The notes under the pieces were generated by a model. That model was not told the DNA's origin, did not search any database, and worked only from the letters and a program-made list of their open reading frames with translations. Shown piece after piece: positions 56,051 through 63,046 of a DNA stretch of 64,000 bases (the first letter of the stretch is position 1; each line of letters starts with the position of its first letter). Origin of the DNA: Candidatus Kapaibacterium sp. (GTDB lineage Bacteria; Bacteroidota; Ignavibacteria; Kapaibacteriales; UBA2268); assembly GCA_963664875.1 (NCBI GenBank), contig OY761611.1, positions 2,368,001 through 2,432,000 of the forward strand. Reading direction: 5' to 3'. Both the position numbers and the translations under genes were made by a program.

Positions 56051-56665
56051 CTACTCTACCTCTTCCAATAGCTCAGAATTATACATTTCGCTTGGGGCTA
56101 TCATCAGAGAGTCGTATGGGATATTTCTGCCATATCGTTCTTTCATGATTTGCTGAACTGTAGGCGAATTCAAATCAAAATCTCTCAGTTTGCGGAGTTT
56201 GCCTATTTCTAATCCGGTTGCTTCTTTGTATATCTTCCAAACATATTCTGAGCAGTACATTTTCTCTTCGTCCATGCTAAACATTATATCATAGGGTTTG
56301 CCGAGGTGGCTTTCTGCAATTTTCTGCATCTTAGCAATAACTTCCGGAGTCAGCACTTCACTTGCATTTTTCAGCCTCATAACCTGGAAGTAAGGCCGAG
56401 CTCCCCTATTCAAATAAGAATTTATTTCTGTAATTTGCACGGGAGAAATGGCTTCGTAAACACGCAACTTACCATCTTTTTCGAGCACGATACCAACATG
56501 ACTGAATTTAGAATTAGTCGCTATGTGTATAGCGTCGCTCTGGTCAGAGGGGAAAGTCTGAAAGATTAAATCTCCGTTCTGTAGTTTTTTGGTATCTATA
56601 GTGCTCGCACATGCAGATAGAATCAGTGCAATAGTAGCAATTAGAGCATATAATTTAGTTCGCAT
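56051..56665 (-). CDS. YiiX/YebB-like permuted papain-like (NlpC/P60) lipoprotein
   Basis: GDLIFQ, SHVGI, GKPYD, YCSEYVWK; lipobox LSAC. Confidence 0.9.
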   Translation of the reverse strand: MRTKLYALIATIALILSACASTIDTKKLQNGDLIFQTFPSDQSDAIHIATNSKFSHVGIVLEKDGKLRVYEAISPVQITEINSYLNRGARPYFQVMRLKNASEVLTPEVIAKMQKIAESHLGKPYDIMFSMDEEKMYCSEYVWKIYKEATGLEIGKLRKLRDFDLNSPTVQQIMKERYGRNIPYDSLMIAPSEMYNSELLEEVE

Positions 56666-56677
56666 GATAGTACCTCT

Positions 56678-57289
56678 TTATTTTACTTCTACTAATAGTT
56701 CAGAATTAAACATATCGCCGGGTGAAATCATCTTTTCATTGTAAGGAATGTTGTTGCCATACCTTTCTTTTAAGATACGTTGTAATGTTTCTGAAGTTAA
56801 GTCAAAATCTTTAAGCGGTCTAAGTTTACCTATTTCTAATCCGGTAGCTTTTTTATAGATTTTCCAGAGATATTCCGAGCAAAACATCTTCGAGTCTGAC
56901 CAATTGAAATACATATCGTAGCCCTTGCCGAGTTCCTTTTTGGCGAGAGATTCCATTTTCTTCAGCACATTATCAGTAATTACTTTATCAGCATTTTTGA
57001 GTCTTTTGACTACATAATCACTACCCTTACCACGGTTGATATAAGTATCAATATCCACAATCTGCACAGGCGAAACTGCTTCATATACAAACAACTCCCC
57101 ATCCTTTTTAAATACCATCCCTACGTGACTATACTTCGATTTAGTTGCCAGCTGAATAGGAACGCTCTGCCTCGACGTTGAAGTTTGGAAAATCAAATCA
57201 CCGCTTTGCAGCTTATCGAGACTAATGTTGTTATTGCTGCAAGCTGTGATGATAAAGAGAGAGATTAAGATATATAAAATATGTTTCAT
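56678..57289 (-). CDS. YiiX/YebB-like permuted papain-like lipoprotein, tandem paralog
   Basis: GDLIFQ, SHVGM, FCSEYLWK; lipobox ITAC. Confidence 0.9.
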   Translation of the reverse strand: MKHILYILISLFIITACSNNNISLDKLQSGDLIFQTSTSRQSVPIQLATKSKYSHVGMVFKKDGELFVYEAVSPVQIVDIDTYINRGKGSDYVVKRLKNADKVITDNVLKKMESLAKKELGKGYDMYFNWSDSKMFCSEYLWKIYKKATGLEIGKLRPLKDFDLTSETLQRILKERYGNNIPYNEKMISPGDMFNSELLVEVK

Positions 57290-57337: not shown

Positions 57338-57432
57338 CACCTCGTTCCGCTCGGTAAAAAAACGGGGGATCAGGTGGCGTGTTGTCCACATAGGGCGCTG
57401 CCCTATGCTACTGATTTGAGGCTTTCAGCCTC
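57338..57432. repeat. REP-like hairpin unit A at the 3' end of tnpA
   Basis: CATAGGGCGCTGCCCTATG and GAGGCTTTCAGCCTC hairpins; unit recurs at 57984-58076 and 58215-58306. Confidence 0.88.
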
Positions 57433-57884
57433 TAATCCCATAAATATTTAGGATTATAATCAACATTCAATTTTTTGAGTATTGCCAATAGTTCTTGTTT
57501 GAAATCGAATCTTTTATGATGTTCATTCTGATGGATGATATAGGAACTGATTTCTTCTATTTGTGAAACATGTACCGAAAAAGCACCATATCCGTCTTGC
57601 CAATAAAATGTACTATATTTTTGATTTTTGTCTTTAATCCATTTTGAAGATGATTTTTTAATTTCTTCAACCAACTTTGCAATTGTTAAATTTTTTGATA
57701 ACATACACAGGATATGTACATGATCTCTTTCTCCCCCGATTTTGACCGGATTACATTTTAAATTTTTACAAATTCCACCAATATAATCATGTAATTCATT
57801 TTCAATAGCTACATCAATTAGTTTTTCTCGGTGTTTTGTACTGAAAACGATATGCAGATAGACTTCAGTAAGTGATTGACTCAT
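57432..57884 (-). mobile_element. tnpA: Y1 HUH transposase, IS200/IS605 TnpA-like (REP-associated, RAYT-type)
   Basis: HIVFSTKHR, HUH motif DHVHIL, KKSSSKW, WQDGYGAFSV, YIIHQNEHH; no tnpB; flanked by palindromes. Confidence 0.9.
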
Positions 57885-57911
57885 ATTTGTATTTCCTATA
57901 ATTAGCAATAT

Positions 57912-58306
57912 CAGCCTGAAAGGCTGTAATCAGTAGCACAGGGTGAAGCCCTGTAAGGGCGTAATCCATAAATTAAATTACTACACCTCGCTCTGCTCGG
58001 TAAGAAACGGGGGTGTGGCTGTGTCTCTACCACATAGGGCGTTGCCCTACGCTACTGATTTGAGGCTTTCAGCCTCAATATAATATCTAATACAATTTTT
58101 CTATCTTCAGCCTGAAAGGCTGACATCAGTAGCACAGGGTGAAACCCTGTGACAGAGATTTTCACCCGATTTATATAAGCCCTGTAAGGGCGTAATCCTA
58201 ATCTCAAATCACGACATCTCGCTCCGCTTGGTAAAAATGGGTTTGTGGTGGTGTCCCTTTTACATAGGGCGCTGCCCTATGCTACTGATTTGAGGCTTTC
58301 AGCCTC
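57912..58306. repeat. Two tandem REPIN-like inverted pairs upstream of tnpA
   Basis: Forward units 57912-57967 and 58108-58198 face inverted units 57984-58076 and 58215-58306. Confidence 0.85.
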
Positions 58307-58353
58307 TACTTATCTGTTTTTAGGCTAAAGTTTTTGCATTCATTAGAGTAATC

Positions 58354-58779
58354 CTATATCTTTACTTTTTCAATATTTTCTACACGAAGCCAGTCGTCCA
58401 TGTTGCCGAAATCGGATTTGTCAAAGGAGAAAGGTTCTATTTCCCGGAAATTCTCAATGCTAATCAGGCAAAGGTATCTTTTTCCGGCGAAACGTTTCAT
58501 TAGCTTAGCGTCTAATTGGAGCATGGGTTGCAACTTTTCAACAATTTCTATTGACTCTTCCGGCTCGAGTTTGTTTGTAAATATGGTGTCACTCACTTGA
58601 GACACAGCTTTGACTATTCCATCTCCGTTGTTTTCAGTGAAGTAAAGAGTGTCGCCAATATCAACTCTCTCGTATGGCATTTTTCTGCCCATTGCACCTC
58701 GGATAATCATTGTTTTCTTCCCGGCAATTAGATTATCCAGTTCTTTTGCTTTTTTGTCTAAATAAACTATATGTTCCAT
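58354..58779 (-). CDS. ASCH/PUA-like domain protein
   Basis: LIAGKKTMIIRG...GDTLYF resembles the ASCH GxKxxxxR signature; GGAG RBS. Confidence 0.6.
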   Translation of the reverse strand: MEHIVYLDKKAKELDNLIAGKKTMIIRGAMGRKMPYERVDIGDTLYFTENNGDGIVKAVSQVSDTIFTNKLEPEESIEIVEKLQPMLQLDAKLMKRFAGKRYLCLISIENFREIEPFSFDKSDFGNMDDWLRVENIEKVKI

Positions 58780-59372
58780 GACATCTCCAATATTTCTTTC
58801 ACTTTAAAATACGCTATAATATAGTAAAAGTTTTCAGTTAATTTATATATTATAGACATAAAATATAAGTATGATTAAGTAAAAGTTCTTTCAAGGTTTT
58901 GGTTTTCTGCATAAGGGTCAGGATGTGAGGAATGTTTAGCTTGGTTTAGGCAATTTTTTACGTTCTCTCAGAGTTAATCAGTTCGATATTAAATGATAAA
59001 AGAATATTGAACAAAAAATATCCTTGAAAAGAAAATTATTAACCTATTTTTTAGCAAATATCGCTCATTATTCGTATATTGTTGAGTGTATTATAGGATC
59101 CGTGTATTATCGCTAAATATGTGTTAGTATTGGATTTTACTTTGATTTTATAGGGACTGTCTAAGAAGTAGAAACAGCATTATAACAAGTTAGATAGTGG
59201 TAGTAACCACCGTATTTCGATTCTTTGCTCAAGCTCAGTATATAATTTTGCTTATTTAGAGTCAATCTCGAAGAGAAGAGCAAACAAGATTACTTTTGCA
59301 CACTTCATAACTTTCATGACTTCCCAAAAATGGAAATACTCTTTATATATAAATAAATTCCGAAGGTAAGCT

Positions 59373-61295
59373 ATGTATGACTTCAAGTTTAAACCTTTCG
59401 AGGAAATGACGCCCGAGGACTACGCAAAAGTTGGTTTTAAATCCGGTTTGGAGGTGCACCAGCAGCTTCTTACTGAAAAGAAACTATTTTGCCGTTGCCC
59501 TGCCGGTCATTATAACAATCATAAATACCATGCTGAGATTTTGCGACACATGCGGCCGACTCTTTCAGAGCTCGGTGAATATGACGGCACTGCTTTGATG
59601 GAATTCAAAACCAAAAAGGAAATACTTTATCGCATCAATTACGATACTGTTTGTACTTATGAAATGGATGATACTCCTCCGTTTCAGATTAACGATCAGG
59701 CTCTTGATATTGCTATTGAAATAGGTATGATTTATGACGCTACGATTGTGAATGAACTTCATATAGCAAGAAAGCAATACCTCGATGGATCTATTCCTAC
59801 CGGATTCCAAAGGACAGCTATCACCTGCGTTGGTGGTTCTATTCCATTTAAAGACAGAAAAATCAACCTCATCCAGATGTCTATCGAAGAAGATTCCTGC
59901 CGCGAATTTAGCGATCAGGGACACACTCGTATTTATCTTACTGATAGATTAGGCATGCCACTCATCGAAACTGTAACAGAACCTGAAATGAAAACTCCTC
60001 AGGAAGTTGCTGAAGTAAATGAAATCATCAGACGCATAGCACGCTCTACCGGTCATGTTCGCACAGGTATCGGTGCTGGTCGCCAAGATGTTAACGTTTC
60101 TGTTACAGGTGGAACCCGTATCGAAATCAAAGGTGTTCATAAAATCAAAAATATACCAAGATTGACATATAACGAAGCTATGAGGCAGTGGAATCTCCTT
60201 AGACTTAGAGAAGAGCTTGCCAATCGTGGAGTAACTGAAGAGACTTTCGAAGCAAACTACAAAGATGTAACTAAACATTTACGTAAAACCCGATTCCAAA
60301 TAATCAAAGATGCTATCGATGCCGGGAAAATAGTAAATTGTGTCAGACTAAAGGGCTTTAAAGACTTACTCAAGTGGCAAACTCAGACCGATACTGTCTT
60401 CTCTAAAGAGTTATCTGACAGAGTAAGGGTAATAGCCTGTCTTTCAGAATTACCGAATATAATCCATTCGGACAGTCCATCTGAAAAGCTTTCTTCTTAT
60501 GAATGGAGCTCTTTGAAAAAATCAGTTGGTGCTACCGATAAAGATACAATCGTACTTGTTTGGGGTAGCGAAGAAGATGCGGAAACCGGAGCTAAAGAAA
60601 TTATCATCAGAGCCAAAGAAGCAACTATCGGCATTCCGTCTGAAACAAGACAGGCTCTTATTGACGGAACTACCGGTTTTGAGCGTATTCTCCCCGGCCC
60701 TGAAAGGATGTATCCTGATACGGATCTTCCTCCTAAAACTATTTCAGCTGAAAGATTGCAAAGAATAAAAGACTCTCTGACTGAGCCATATTGGGAAAGA
60801 GAAGCCAAATATTATAGCTTAGGTGTGCCGGAAGATTCTATCAAGTCCTTAGCCATTTCGCCTTTTTCTGCAACTTTCGATAAGATAGTAGCGATGGGAG
60901 TAGATGCAAAACTTGCTGCAGTTGCTTTGACTCAGTTTGTCAAACGTCTAAACAAAAAAGGTTACGAAACAGAATACCTTACTGAGGAGCATTTCCTAAA
61001 TATTTTTGAATTGTTCAAAAGCGGAAAATTAGCTAAAGATGGTATTTATGATGCAATCAAAAGAGCGATAGTTTTAGGAGAAGTATCATCTCATAATTTG
61101 CCTGAAAAATGCTCCGAATCTGAAATGAAAGGCAGAATCAACGAAGCAAAAGAATTGATGAATAAAATACGAATCAAATATCCTGACAAAAAAGGTAAAA
61201 TATTTATGGGCTCTATCATGAAAAAGCTTCGTGGCAGAGTTGATGGAGTTGAAATACTCAAACTTGTTAATGAATTTAAGCCGGAGGAAGTATAA
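59373..61295 (+). CDS. gatE: Glu-tRNA(Gln) amidotransferase subunit GatE
   Basis: GLEVHQQL, KLFC, RPTLSELGEYD, DGSIPTGFQRT, EEDS, DRLGMPLIE, RQDVNVS, central AspRS-like insertion, RMYPDTD. Confidence 0.93.
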   Translation: MYDFKFKPFEEMTPEDYAKVGFKSGLEVHQQLLTEKKLFCRCPAGHYNNHKYHAEILRHMRPTLSELGEYDGTALMEFKTKKEILYRINYDTVCTYEMDDTPPFQINDQALDIAIEIGMIYDATIVNELHIARKQYLDGSIPTGFQRTAITCVGGSIPFKDRKINLIQMSIEEDSCREFSDQGHTRIYLTDRLGMPLIETVTEPEMKTPQEVAEVNEIIRRIARSTGHVRTGIGAGRQDVNVSVTGGTRIEIKGVHKIKNIPRLTYNEAMRQWNLLRLREELANRGVTEETFEANYKDVTKHLRKTRFQIIKDAIDAGKIVNCVRLKGFKDLLKWQTQTDTVFSKELSDRVRVIACLSELPNIIHSDSPSEKLSSYEWSSLKKSVGATDKDTIVLVWGSEEDAETGAKEIIIRAKEATIGIPSETRQALIDGTTGFERILPGPERMYPDTDLPPKTISAERLQRIKDSLTEPYWEREAKYYSLGVPEDSIKSLAISPFSATFDKIVAMGVDAKLAAVALTQFVKRLNKKGYETEYLTEEHFLNIFELFKSGKLAKDGIYDAIKRAIVLGEVSSHNLPEKCSESEMKGRINEAKELMNKIRIKYPDKKGKIFMGSIMKKLRGRVDGVEILKLVNEFKPEEV

Positions 61296-62686
61296 TGTCT
61301 ATGAATGAAGATTATAAAGGCTATCGCGGTGCCGGATTAGAGTTATTGATGAAATACGATGCTCTGATTTGGAGTGATGTCAGATTAAAAACTTCCGACG
61401 AAAGAACTCATATCGGTCTTATCTTGCCAAGAGCTGAGCAGGCTGACGAGTTCCATATTGTTTTGAAACTTCGTACCGGCTATAATATCGGTATCCATGT
61501 TGATAATATACTCAACATCGAAGTAGTTGGCAGAAAAGTAGCTAATTACAAAATTCCTGAGCAGGAATTCCCGTATTCACCTAAAAAGCCAAGAGTCAAA
61601 CTTTTTGGTACCGGCGGTACGATTGCCAGCCGTCTTGATTACAGAACCGGTGCCGTTATCCCTGCATTCTCTCCGGGAGAACTTTACGGTTCTGTGCCTG
61701 AGCTTGCAGATTACTGTAACTTGGAAACCGAAAAACTTTATGGCGTATTCTCTGAAAATATGGGACCTGACCAGTGGATAGGCACTGCTCAGGCTATTGC
61801 AAAAGAAATTGAGCAAGGTGTAAAAGGTATTGTTATCGGTCATGGTACTGACACAATGCACCATACAGCAGCAGCTCTTACATTTATGCTCCAAAACACA
61901 CCTGTTCCGATAGTAATGGTAGGCTCTCAGCGTTCATCTGACAGACCTTCTTCAGATGCGGCTCTTAACCTGATTCACAGTGTAAAAACTGCTGCGGAAT
62001 CTGATATAGCAGAAGTAATGGTTTGTATGTTTGGGCCTACTTCAGATGAATACGGTTTGCTTCATAGAGGTACCAGAGTTAGAAAAATGCACTCTTCCTA
62101 CCGCTCTACTTTCAGAACCATCGGAGATATTCCGCTTGCGATGGTTAACAAAGAGGCTATCAGCCCATTGAGAGAGGATTATTCAAGAAGAAGAAGAGAT
62201 AAAGAATTCAAACTTATTCCTACTTTTGAAAACAAAGTTACTATTGTTTATTACTATCCGAATATGCAGCCGGACATCATCGATGCTTTGATTGATAACG
62301 GCTACAAAGGCATAGTAATAGCAGGCACCGGTCTTGGACACGTTAATAAACCGCTTTACCCGGCGCTAAAACGTGCTCAGGAAAAAGGAGTTCAGGTTTA
62401 CATGACGGTACAGACTCTTTGGGGCTATGTGCAGATGTATGTTTACGAAACAGGCAGGGAGATGATGGAGCTGGGAGTAATTCCTTTAGCAAATATGCTT
62501 CCTGAAGTTGCGTATATCAAACTTGGCTGGGCTTTAGGTCAAACTCAGGATGCAGAAGAAGTCAAAAAACTAATGCTTACTCCTGTCAATGGAGAGATTA
62601 CAGAAAGAGAGCCATCGAATGGCTATCTCGTATATCAGGGTGGCATTCCTGAAGTGGAAGAGTTTATAGCGAAGTTTAGGAAATAA
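61295..62686 (+). CDS. gatD: Glu-tRNA(Gln) amidotransferase subunit GatD (asparaginase-like glutaminase)
   Basis: N-terminal KLRTGYNIG domain, TGGTIASRLDYRTGAV, HGTDTM, GSQRSSDRPSSD, MLPEVAYIKL. Confidence 0.93.
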   Translation: MSMNEDYKGYRGAGLELLMKYDALIWSDVRLKTSDERTHIGLILPRAEQADEFHIVLKLRTGYNIGIHVDNILNIEVVGRKVANYKIPEQEFPYSPKKPRVKLFGTGGTIASRLDYRTGAVIPAFSPGELYGSVPELADYCNLETEKLYGVFSENMGPDQWIGTAQAIAKEIEQGVKGIVIGHGTDTMHHTAAALTFMLQNTPVPIVMVGSQRSSDRPSSDAALNLIHSVKTAAESDIAEVMVCMFGPTSDEYGLLHRGTRVRKMHSSYRSTFRTIGDIPLAMVNKEAISPLREDYSRRRRDKEFKLIPTFENKVTIVYYYPNMQPDIIDALIDNGYKGIVIAGTGLGHVNKPLYPALKRAQEKGVQVYMTVQTLWGYVQMYVYETGREMMELGVIPLANMLPEVAYIKLGWALGQTQDAEEVKKLMLTPVNGEITEREPSNGYLVYQGGIPEVEEFIAKFRK

Positions 62687-62691
62687 TTTAT

Positions 62692-62732
62692 ATTTCTCAA
62701 CCGTGGGGTTTACTTCCCCATGGTTGAGAAAT
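62692..62732 (+). terminator. Strong hairpin after gatD
   Basis: ATTTCTCAACCGTGGGG...CCCCATGGTTGAGAAAT. Confidence 0.8.
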
Positions 62733-63046
62733 TGTTAGGCATTGTTTTCTTTAGATTATTCGAACATCTCACAGCAACATCTCTTACCCTGTTGTCTTGA
62801 CTACTGCTCTTATGTCTATCCGAAATCTTTTTTTATATTTAAAAACCTTCAAAGCAAAAAAAAAAAGTAAATGCGCTTAGTTACATAGAACCAAAAATAC
62901 ATTTACCCCAAAAATGTCATTAGCGATAATCTCTAATGACTGTCATTAGAAAAAAGAAGATATAACATGTTGATAAATAGTGTTTTAGCAGATATTAAAA
63001 AAAGTCTATATTAGGAAAACAGATGTAAGAAAATCTTACGAAAAAT

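Follow-up and report, generated by a model that had tools for sequence, protein, structure and literature searches.

A GatDE-type amidotransferase operon alongside GlnRS in the closed genome of a Candidatus Kapaibacterium bacterium

The window, a stretch of 64,000 nucleotides of a Candidatus Kapaibacterium sp. chromosome (contig OY761611.1, positions 2,368,001 to 2,432,000), encodes a candidate tRNA-dependent amidotransferase of the GatDE type; the predicted architecture of GatE, that of GatD, and their joint encoding all agree with this assignment. The locus is not exceptional on its own, being one member of a large bacterial GatDE group that is already annotated. New here are the nearly constant pairing of bacterial GatE with GlnRS, the missing or decaying state of GatCAB where GatDE is present, and the position of bacterial GatE as a single clade that, among archaea, lies closest to Heimdall-type Asgard proteins. 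It is fairly probable that this GatDE is a working Glu-tRNA(Gln) amidotransferase that took over from GatCAB. The locus consists of the following features:

59000..59149, plus strand: upstream non-coding stretch, possible promoter or leader; the sole flank conserved with same-genus loci
59373..61295, plus strand: gatE, predicted tRNA-dependent kinase/amidotransferase subunit with GatB/E catalytic core, inserted GAD-like domain and YqeY-like tail
61293..61297, plus strand: TAATG junction, read directly; gatE stop and gatD start have one base in common
61295..62686, plus strand: gatD, predicted asparaginase-type glutaminase subunit with GatD-specific N-terminal domain
62692..62732, plus strand: 17-bp hairpin, possible terminator, directly 3' of the gatD stop, with a weak U-tail

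The open reading frames of gatE (640 amino acids) and gatD (463 amino acids) have exactly the coordinates given in a preliminary description of this DNA, and its account of two full-length genes with a TAATG overlap agrees with the letters of the junction, which reads ...GAAGTATAATGTCT..., with the gatE stop TAA at 61293-61295 and the gatD start ATG at 61295-61297. In 79 of the 81 loci compared, gatD comes after gatE on the same strand and lies next to it or overlaps it; the most frequent form of the junction is the overlap of a single base (21 loci).

Against the NCBIfam equivalog models for GatE and GatD, each with its own cut-off, GatE scored 551.8 bits with NF003107 (cut-off 456) and 462.9 bits with TIGR00134 (cut-off 319.55), and GatD scored 522.2 bits with TIGR02153 (cut-off 324) and 519.5 bits with NF003217 (cut-off 310). 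GatB and asparaginase models scored far lower, in keeping with the earlier identification of the pair as true GatE and GatD. A GatB of the GatCAB complex (about 480 amino acids, lacking the insertion) was rejected as the identity of GatE: the best GatB model reached only 155.7 bits (cut-off 338), split over two stretches, and the genome has a true gatB of its own at another locus. A stand-alone type I L-asparaginase (about 330 amino acids, unpaired, lacking the GatD_N domain) was likewise rejected for GatD, which is longer, carries PF18195 and pairs with gatE; GatD models outscored the plain-asparaginase model TIGR00519 on this protein (522 vs. 392 bits). The Pfam domains of GatE are PF02934 (GatB_N, residues 24-461) and PF02637 (GatB_Yqey, 502-634), with the GAD-like insertion PF02938 (311-403) at 22.6 bits, slightly below its cut-off of 23.4; those of GatD are PF18195 (GatD_N, residues 29-78) and both asparaginase domains, PF00710 and PF17763.

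Both subunits aligned over their full length to the solved archaeal GatDE of Pyrococcus abyssi (1ZQ1) and M. thermautotrophicus (2D6F), GatE with E-values of 1e-99 and 4e-94 (residues 16-633 against 1zq1_C, E 9.5e-100) and GatD with 5e-124 and 7e-119 (residues 33-438 against 1zq1_A, E 5.3e-124). The catalytic motifs, previously described as intact, are kept in both: the GatD blocks GTGGTIAS (105), HGTDTM (183), and VRKMH (262) are identical or conservative relative to 1ZQ1_A, and the GatE blocks DGS..GFQRTAI, EED, RQDVNVS, RIEIKGV, and RMYPDTD are identical or near-identical to those of archaeal GatE. Each of the three GatD motifs presumably holds a catalytic residue. The GatD glutaminase is described as relying on a Thr-Lys-Asp triad (excerpt of PMC2330236).

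The host of this operon is a bacterium, as the preliminary description had concluded from the neighboring genes; the genome, close to 'Candidatus Kapaibacterium', is a single closed contig of 3,827,814 bp that carries four bacterial SSU rRNA genes and is rated 100% complete with 1.09% contamination. Reviews, in the excerpts available, treat GatDE as archaea-specific (PMC9499178; PMC2943598; PMC2330236), and among the matches listed (CC-licensed PMC and bioRxiv texts since 2010) none reported GatDE in bacteria, judging by titles and the opening lines of abstracts. The expectation of GatDE in archaea only, in hosts without GlnRS, departs from what was found here, a closed bacterial genome with a GlnRS of 789 bits; this expectation describes the distribution of GatDE and not the enzyme, and is no bar to GatDE membership. 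In a species-level genome collection, 312 loci encode a relative; the bacterial GatE clade includes sequences whose labels name several bacterial phyla, and GenBank already annotates such bacterial proteins as GatE, a circumstance anticipated in the preliminary description. GatE is present in 20 of the 25 genomes of the host's family (5/5 in the genus and 15/20 in the remainder, sampled one per genus) and in 21 of 101 genomes of the class, counts that come from related genomes and not from independent events; other families of the same order had none in 16 genomes. With relatives so widely distributed, the notion of a transfer particular to this lineage finds no support.

The flanks of gatED are non-syntenic even inside the genus. 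The non-coding stretch at 59000-59149 is 72-84% identical to the equivalent position 5' of gatE in three same-genus loci (L020-L022), in which the remaining flanks found no match; a scan for sigma-70-type promoters performed at chance level (16 seen, 12.1 expected). The hairpin downstream of gatD folds with -30.2 kcal/mol (z -7.16; equal folding in 0 of 200 shuffles), and was rejected as a repeated element, with only one copy in the genome. The terminator previously ascribed to the operon is partly borne out by the strength of this hairpin, but its U-tail is weak and a consensus terminator scan made no call at this position.

Mobile elements border the operon on both sides, with an IS200/IS605-type tnpA at 57432-57908 on the upstream side and, from ~62900 on, a copy of IS1380 on the downstream side; in Logan contigs the gatED-bearing piece stops at repeats on both sides. 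Together with the missing synteny, this setting would suit a recent island import or a misassembly at flanks rich in IS elements, a reading that is nevertheless extremely unlikely: the genome is a single closed contig, the operon occurs throughout the genus and in most other genera of the family, its divergence is in line with that of housekeeping genes (dS saturated, ~0.9-1.45), and one Logan contig of 4658 bases covers 58279-62936 with no differences in runs from two studies. The assembly chimera that the preliminary description had named as grounds for dismissal is contradicted by the same closed contig, genus-wide operon, and spanning contig. A joint that skips 58345-63028 appeared in one run, with merely 21 letters on its shorter side, under the reliable level of the tool; RNA runs were absent among the 21 runs listed.

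Within the genus dS is saturated (~0.9-1.45), and the comparison of substitution rates was made on dN. Against four same-genus genomes, dN is 0.025-0.043 for gatD and 0.053-0.072 for gatE, compared to 0.10 for gltX, 0.28-0.32 for the gatA-like gene and 0.42 for gatB; the corresponding amino acid identities among congeners are 94-96% for GatD, 90-92% for GatE, 62-66% for the GatA-like protein, and 48-53% for GatB. No stop codons were found in any gatD or gatE copy examined. Both genes are intact and under strong constraint, with a lower rate of change than that of gltX, an essential gene. A redundant leftover without present function could be imagined in cells where GlnRS, AsnRS and an AsnB-type synthetase meet all known needs; yet the slow change of intact genes, and the retention of the operon by every one of the 20 family genomes with GlnRS, against a decaying gatCAB, make this very unlikely.

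GatE-bearing genomes also encode GlnRS in 20 of 20 cases among 41 relatives, and in 20 of 21 cases in the class sample, where the lone exception has GatB too; GatDE was never observed as the sole Gln-tRNA route in this sample, and the need for it is not obvious. Some amidotransferase is nonetheless retained beside GlnRS across the class: 49 class genomes carry GlnRS, 20 of them with GatE, 26 with only a GatB-type match, and 3 with neither. The GatB encoded elsewhere in the present genome passes its cut-off (369.4 vs. 314.8 bits), the GatA-like protein scores below its own, and GatC was not found in this genome; in same-genus genomes, GatB is split across two frames (G003) and gatA contains a TAA stop (G001). 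The third route to Gln-tRNA(Gln) that had been proposed for this lineage is true only of the gene list, which comprises GlnRS, GatCAB genes, and GatDE; but with a weak GatA-like protein, no GatC, and fast-changing GatB and GatA, GatCAB looks to be decaying in this genome and genus. Among the 41 relatives, GatA is above cut-off in 20 of the 21 genomes that lack GatE; of the 20 genomes with GatE, 2 have an intact GatA, 6 have one below cut-off, and in the other 12 none was found. Since intact, degraded, and absent states occur side by side, the pattern suggests that GatCAB was lost repeatedly after the arrival of GatDE.

All 41 relatives encode a single GluRS each, which is of the bacterial type in the host and orthologous to the GluRS of sister genomes without GlnRS; the latter enzymes must mischarge tRNA-Gln, because those genomes lack GlnRS. 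We take Arg358 of the Thermus thermophilus GluRS to govern discrimination. The aligned residue is Arg in 30 of 30 GluRS, with or without GlnRS in the genome; as a marker of discrimination it was discarded as uninformative, since Arg also occurs in GluRS that must be non-discriminating.

Given that GlnRS already supplies Gln-tRNA, GatDE could have been repurposed toward another aminoacyl-tRNA (for example Asp-tRNA-Asn) or a function outside translation. The near-confinement of GatE to GlnRS-bearing genomes would fit such a change, as would the distance of the bacterial clade from most archaeal GatE (at most 38% identity) and the host tRNA-Gln, most of which lack the archaeal A1-U72 identity pair. 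However, AsnRS was found in 40 of the 41 relatives and the AsnB-type synthetase in 38, both including this genome, regardless of GatE; with both present, there is no need to make Asn on tRNA, and an Asn role for GatDE was rejected for want of genomic support. Further, both subunits pass their equivalog models and retain the tRNA-binding tail and insertion domains; the near-complementary distribution with GatCAB suggests the same job; and no conserved neighbors of gatED were found among the 81 loci, where the next real gene family is common to only 7, which leaves no third gene pointing to another pathway. Repurposing is, on balance, unlikely, and Glu-tRNA(Gln) is the substrate that we infer.

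In an unrooted GatE tree, the bacterial-type sequences (23 rows, support 100/100), the Heimdall-type sequences (11 rows, 100/100), and the other archaea (18 rows, 97/95) are joined at one node. The best archaeal match to the GatE studied here is the Heimdall-type protein P0155 (43% identity, 454 bits), with other archaea at 379 bits or less, and identity to most archaeal GatE is 33-38%. A quick tree rooted with GatB placed the root among the other archaea and joined bacteria with the Heimdall-type sequence (98% SH-aLRT), on an outgroup branch of 6.8 changes per column. As a caveat, unnamed proteins carry taxon labels that depend on the depositors' binning; one sequence labelled 'Thermoplasmata', on a 5.16-Mb contig, falls inside the bacterial clade. 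Judging from these sequences, an archaeal connection of bacterial GatE is likely, and the interdomain transfer suggested in the preliminary description is upheld to the extent that the bacterial clade joins between Heimdall-type Asgard and other archaeal GatE, but an event special to this lineage is not supported.

Old vertical inheritance, in which bacterial GatDE survived in a few bacterial lines from a pre-LUCA GatDE/GatCAB pair and no archaeal transfer took place, would accommodate a bacterial-type GatE that is set apart as a whole by a branch with 100/100 support, where an unrooted tree permits the root, and a clade with sequences labelled from several phyla. This scenario is improbable: with the root on the bacterial stem, Heimdall-type GatE would be the first to branch off among archaea, the tree rooted with GatB places the root elsewhere, albeit with a very long outgroup branch, and the presence of GatE is patchy, both in the class (21/101) and in other families of the order (0/16). 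An old transfer from archaea to bacteria is indicated instead, because the nearest archaeal relatives of the bacterial clade are of the Heimdall type; its direction and age are what we infer from this placement.

Archaeal GatDE is described as recognizing A1-U72 (excerpt of PMC2330236); bacterial GatDE must therefore read the tRNA differently if it uses U1-A72 tRNAs. Inspection of the first pair, as the preliminary description had proposed, gave a divided result: this genome encodes two tRNA-Gln, a tRNA-Gln(UUG) with the archaeal A1-U72 and a tRNA-Gln(CUG) with U1-A72, and the 24 GatE-bearing genomes with data have A1-U72 on tRNA-Gln(UUG) in 11 cases, all in one family, and U1-A72 in 13. For tRNA-Gln(CUG), U1-A72 was found in 21 of 21 genomes read. 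A1-U72 as a hallmark common to GatDE hosts was rejected, with U1-A72 in 7/7 readable GatE-bearing genomes of the wider class, a thin sample in which the search recovered tRNA-Gln in only 15 of 101 genomes; A1-U72 also occurs in one genome with GlnRS and without GatE (G032). An import of tRNA-Gln(CUG) along with GlnRS was rejected as well, with the same tRNA type in three genomes that lack GlnRS (G006, G028, and G038).

Tentatively, GatDE in bacteria may form a variant of its own that works only beside GlnRS, took the place of GatCAB, and can use tRNA-Gln with U1-A72. The tRNA-Gln(UUG) of the family would have switched to the archaeal A1-U72, with two Gln-tRNA routes partly split by isoacceptor, or an Asn-fuelled route would be kept for periods of low free glutamine; this is possible but doubtful. 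In the more probable succession from GatCAB to GatDE, an old archaea-to-bacteria transfer of GatDE would have been followed by its spread among bacteria. The family ancestor would have made Gln-tRNA with one non-discriminating GluRS and GatCAB; one sub-lineage of the family would then have acquired GlnRS and GatDE, with GatCAB afterwards lost or decaying. The single GluRS would still glutamylate at least one tRNA-Gln, and GatDE would perform the former conversion of GatCAB in parallel with GlnRS: GatD would release ammonia from glutamine or asparagine, and GatE would phosphorylate and then amidate the glutamate on tRNA-Gln.

The operon shares with archaeal GatDE (1ZQ1, 2D6F) the two subunits, their domain order, full-length alignment, and motif blocks. 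In contrast, its host is a bacterium with GlnRS, the partner GluRS is of the bacterial type, and the tRNA-Gln of the hosts is mostly U1-A72; its GatE is 33-38% identical to that of most archaea, compared with 43% for the Heimdall type. Bacterial GatCAB catalyzes the same overall reaction, its GatB is a paralogue of GatE, and its distribution in the family is nearly complementary; it differs in having three subunits and an amidase-type glutaminase, GatA, where GatDE has an asparaginase-type enzyme. The GatCAB of Deinococcus, Thermus, and Bdellovibrio is tied to asparagine supply. These bacteria resemble the present host in retaining an amidotransferase despite both direct synthetases, GlnRS and AsnRS, and the abstract that describes this also mentions predicted Asn auxotrophy (PMC4206432); their enzyme is GatCAB, whereas GatDE and an AsnB-type synthetase are found here.

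Archaea are described as lacking GlnRS (excerpt of PMC9499178), and an archaea-only GatDE has been used, in the excerpts available, in arguments on Gln-tRNA formation in LUCA and the two prokaryotic domains (PMC9499178; PMC2943598; PMC2330236). This archaea-only picture is harder to maintain given a large bacterial GatDE clade whose closest relative is of the Asgard type, its almost constant pairing with GlnRS, and the apparent replacement of GatCAB by bacterial GatDE. The finding poses a testable question, the role of a tRNA-dependent amidotransferase in a cell that already has GlnRS; with a closed genome, a constrained and intact operon, a decaying GatCAB, and two tRNA-Gln that differ in their identity pair, this locus is a clean test case.

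The gatE and gatD genes are co-directional and share one base of the TAATG at 61293-61297, common to the gatE stop and the gatD start; they lie among the following features (window coordinates):

56051-57289, minus strand: two tandem genes for YiiX-family permuted papain-like proteins (204 and 203 amino acids), both over the equivalog cut-off
57432-57908, minus strand: single-copy IS200/IS605-type tnpA, 1.5 kb upstream of gatE
58354-58779, minus strand: 141-amino-acid ORF, located between tnpA and gatE
59373-61295, plus strand: gatE, 640 amino acids
61295-62686, plus strand: gatD, 463 amino acids
62900-64000, continuing beyond the window end: IS1380-family element, beginning about 215 bases past the gatD stop, with its transposase ORF from 63047

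The preliminary description had named the proteins GatE and GatD, to be refuted if they grouped with GatB or plain asparaginases, and the model scores bear the naming out. GatE exceeded the equivalog cut-offs of NF003107 (551.8 bits; cut-off 456) and TIGR00134 (462.9; cut-off 319.55), whereas the top GatB model reached 155.7 bits against a cut-off of 338; GatD scored 522.2 bits with TIGR02153 (cut-off 324), above the plain asparaginase models. Pfam domains were as expected, with the GatD-specific N-terminal domain in GatD and, in GatE, a GAD-like insertion of borderline score, and both proteins aligned end to end, with motif blocks conserved, to the solved archaeal GatDE of Pyrococcus abyssi (1ZQ1) and Methanothermobacter thermautotrophicus (2D6F). 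The operon had also been credited with its own terminator; a 17-bp hairpin (z -7.2) does follow the gatD stop, but its U-tail is weak and it was not among the calls of a consensus terminator scan.

The neighbors are bacterial, as originally described: YiiX-type genes, menB and IS elements flank gatED, the IS1380 element being one of three near-identical copies in the host genome; the 141-amino-acid ORF had no match in NCBIfam or Pfam. The host assembly is a single contig of 3,827,814 bp (36% G+C, 64 tRNA genes, four bacterial SSU rRNA genes; completeness 100%, contamination 1.09%). Among Logan contigs from runs of two studies, a 4658-base piece covers 58279-62936 without differences and ends at repeats; in two runs it carries the 141-amino-acid ORF together with gatED. 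This contig and the distribution of GatE in the family contradict an assembly chimera at the flanks, a risk raised at the outset, and likewise a fresh island.

Of 41 related genomes, 19 have a GatE above the cut-off, and a 20th (G014) has it as two contig-end pieces. These 20 cover the whole genus (five genomes) and 15 of the family's 20 other genomes (one per genus); GatE was absent from all 16 genomes of the order's other families. It was also found in 21 of 101 genomes sampled from the class, a sample that partly overlaps the first, some genomes recurring under new handles. Since the sampled genomes are kin, such counts do not represent independent events. The species-level genome collection contains 312 stretches that code for a GatE relative; the best 80 of these are all at least 62% identical, with titles mostly of Kapabacteria, Ignavibacteria or Bacteroidota, and the nearest among them (90-92% identity) bear the title 'Candidatus Kapaibacterium sp.'. 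Many loci at 62-70% identity (L023-L025, L027, L033 and others) come from MAGs titled 'uncultured Hyphomicrobiales', 'Desulfobulbaceae', 'Acidobacteriota', 'Rhodothermaceae' or 'Aminicenantes'; this mixture of phyla reflects either unreliable record titles or recent movement of the operon between phyla. In 79 of 81 loci gatE is followed by gatD on the same strand; besides gatD, no conserved neighbor gene of gatE was found in the 81 loci, and synteny of the gatED flanks was not found even between genomes of the same genus, which indicates that the genomes were rearranged and the two-gene module was retained. In one class genome, glnS and gatE (G110:C45:508058-509644 and G110:C45:511059-512933) lie about 1.4 kb apart on opposite strands of one contig. 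GenBank already carries the name 'Glu-tRNA(Gln) amidotransferase subunit GatE' for proteins of Kapaibacterium and other bacterial MAGs, as the preliminary description had allowed; searches of the openly licensed literature found no paper on bacterial GatDE.

A GatE search of 1.84 billion cluster representatives returned two tiers: full-length matches at 43-52% identity (450-684 bits), and matches at 32-38% identity (at most 379 bits) whose labelled members are archaeal (Thermoprotei, Thorarchaeota, Odinarchaeota, Nanoarchaeia). In the first tier the labels are bacterial ('Deltaproteobacteria bacterium', 'candidate division CSSED10-310') except for P0155, a protein whose 90% cluster contains a Heimdallarchaeota record and whose relatives (60-88% identity) carry the labels Heimdallarchaeota (8), Asgard group (5), Thorarchaeota (1) and Bathyarchaeia (1). 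In an unrooted tree (52 rows, 649 columns, LG+C20+F+G4), bacterial-type GatE (23 rows; support 100/100), Heimdall-type GatE (11 rows; 100/100) and GatE of other archaea (18 rows; 97/95) were each separated by a branch. The bacterial-type clade includes P0392, a GatE encoded on a 5.16-Mb contig; this protein is labelled 'Thermoplasmata archaeon', probably wrongly. The three groups share one node, and a sister relationship between the bacterial and Heimdall types therefore requires a root among the other archaea. Such a root emerged from a quick tree with the host GatB as outgroup, in which P0155 grouped with the bacterial clade (98% SH-aLRT), but the outgroup branch of 6.8 changes per column makes this rooting untrustworthy. 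These GatE relationships are interpreted as a single ancient transfer from an Asgard-like donor, with later spread among bacteria; the rival reading, old vertical descent of bacterial GatDE, turns on the same root. Of the interdomain transfer originally proposed, the archaeal link is likely, with the Heimdall type nearest, but it is not particular to the lineage of the window, as the 20 relatives and 21 class genomes with GatE attest.

The host genome encodes GlnRS (789 bits), AsnRS (483 bits) and one copy of GluRS, and the following GatCAB candidates outside the window:

G000:C1:2015716-2017086: GatB, 369 bits (cut-off 314.8)
G000:C1:647760-649082: GatA-like protein, 376.5 bits, under the cut-off of 481.1

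A search of the host genome for GatC gave no match. GatDE had been suggested as a third route to Gln-tRNA(Gln); GlnRS and GatB do accompany it, but the sub-cut-off GatA and missing GatC match speak against a full set of three. Among the 41 relatives, the genomes with GlnRS are the 20 with GatE and, in addition, only G032, and GatA is over the cut-off in 20 of the 21 that lack GatE. Of the GatE-bearing genomes, two have GatA intact (G023, G024), six have it under the cut-off (G018 and the five of the genus) and 12 gave no GatA match; a GatB-type ORF occurs in eight of the 20 and a fragment in G024. AsnRS (40/41) and an AsnB-type synthetase (38/41) are nearly universal in the relatives; AsnA is rare (2/41). 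In the class sample, GlnRS accompanies GatE in 20 of 21 genomes, the exception (G057) also having GatB; the 49 genomes with GlnRS have GatE (20), GatB-type matches only (26) or neither (3).

The host was compared with its four congeners by amino-acid identity and by dN, used because dS was saturated. Identities are high for GatD (94-96%), GatE (90-92%) and GluRS (86-87%), and lower for the GatA-like protein (62-66%) and GatB (48-53%). The dN values of gatD (0.025-0.043) and gatE (0.053-0.072) lie below that of gltX (about 0.10), and those of gatA-like (0.28-0.32) and gatB (0.42) far above; GatDE is therefore more tightly constrained than an essential synthetase, and GatCAB is drifting. In one congener (G003) gatB is split into two frames by a frameshift, and in another (G001) gatA contains a TAA stop; GatCAB looks to be decaying in the host's genus.

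Archaeal GatDE recognizes the first pair A1-U72, and bacterial GatCAB U1-A72, according to PMC2330236. The tRNA-Gln first pair, proposed as a diagnostic, proved to be of both kinds in the host:

G000:C1:2180355-2180428, outside the window: tRNA-Gln(UUG), archaeal A1-U72, 3-bp D stem
G000:C1:2865100-2865173, outside the window: tRNA-Gln(CUG), bacterial U1-A72, 4-bp D stem, with a body unlike that of the UUG type

The host tRNA-Asn has U1-A72. Across 28 relatives, tRNA-Gln(UUG) has A1-U72 in 12 and U1-A72 in 16. GlnRS is present in each of the 12 and GatE in 11; the remaining one, G032, has GlnRS without either amidotransferase. Of the 16, six have GatE. In the wider class the tRNA was readable in 15 genomes only, all U1-A72, seven with GatE; the 24 GatE-bearing genomes with tRNA-Gln(UUG) data thus divide into 11 with A1-U72 and 13 with U1-A72. 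For the CUG type, U1-A72 was found in each of the 21 genomes read; this type occurs also in three genomes without GlnRS. On this evidence the A1-U72 switch is local to part of the family, and release from the GatCAB requirement fits it as well as adaptation to GatDE does.

In the simplest and most likely account, the family ancestor would have had one non-discriminating GluRS and GatCAB; one sub-lineage would have gained GlnRS and GatDE, after which GatCAB would have become dispensable and subject to loss. GatDE may have been retained because GluRS continues to produce some Glu-tRNA(Gln), which needs conversion; the enzyme's substrate and the behavior of GluRS are inferred here. A sequence test for GluRS discrimination was uninformative: at the position aligned with T. 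thermophilus Arg358, all 30 GluRS compared have Arg, with or without GlnRS in the genome. As GatE almost never occurs without GlnRS, GatDE could serve only some tRNA-Gln, could matter only conditionally, for example with Asn as amide donor, or could have another role. The operon in the window is an ordinary member of a large, already annotated bacterial GatDE clade and is not exceptional alone; what is worth carrying forward is the association with GlnRS, the apparent decay of GatCAB, and the Heimdall type as nearest relative.
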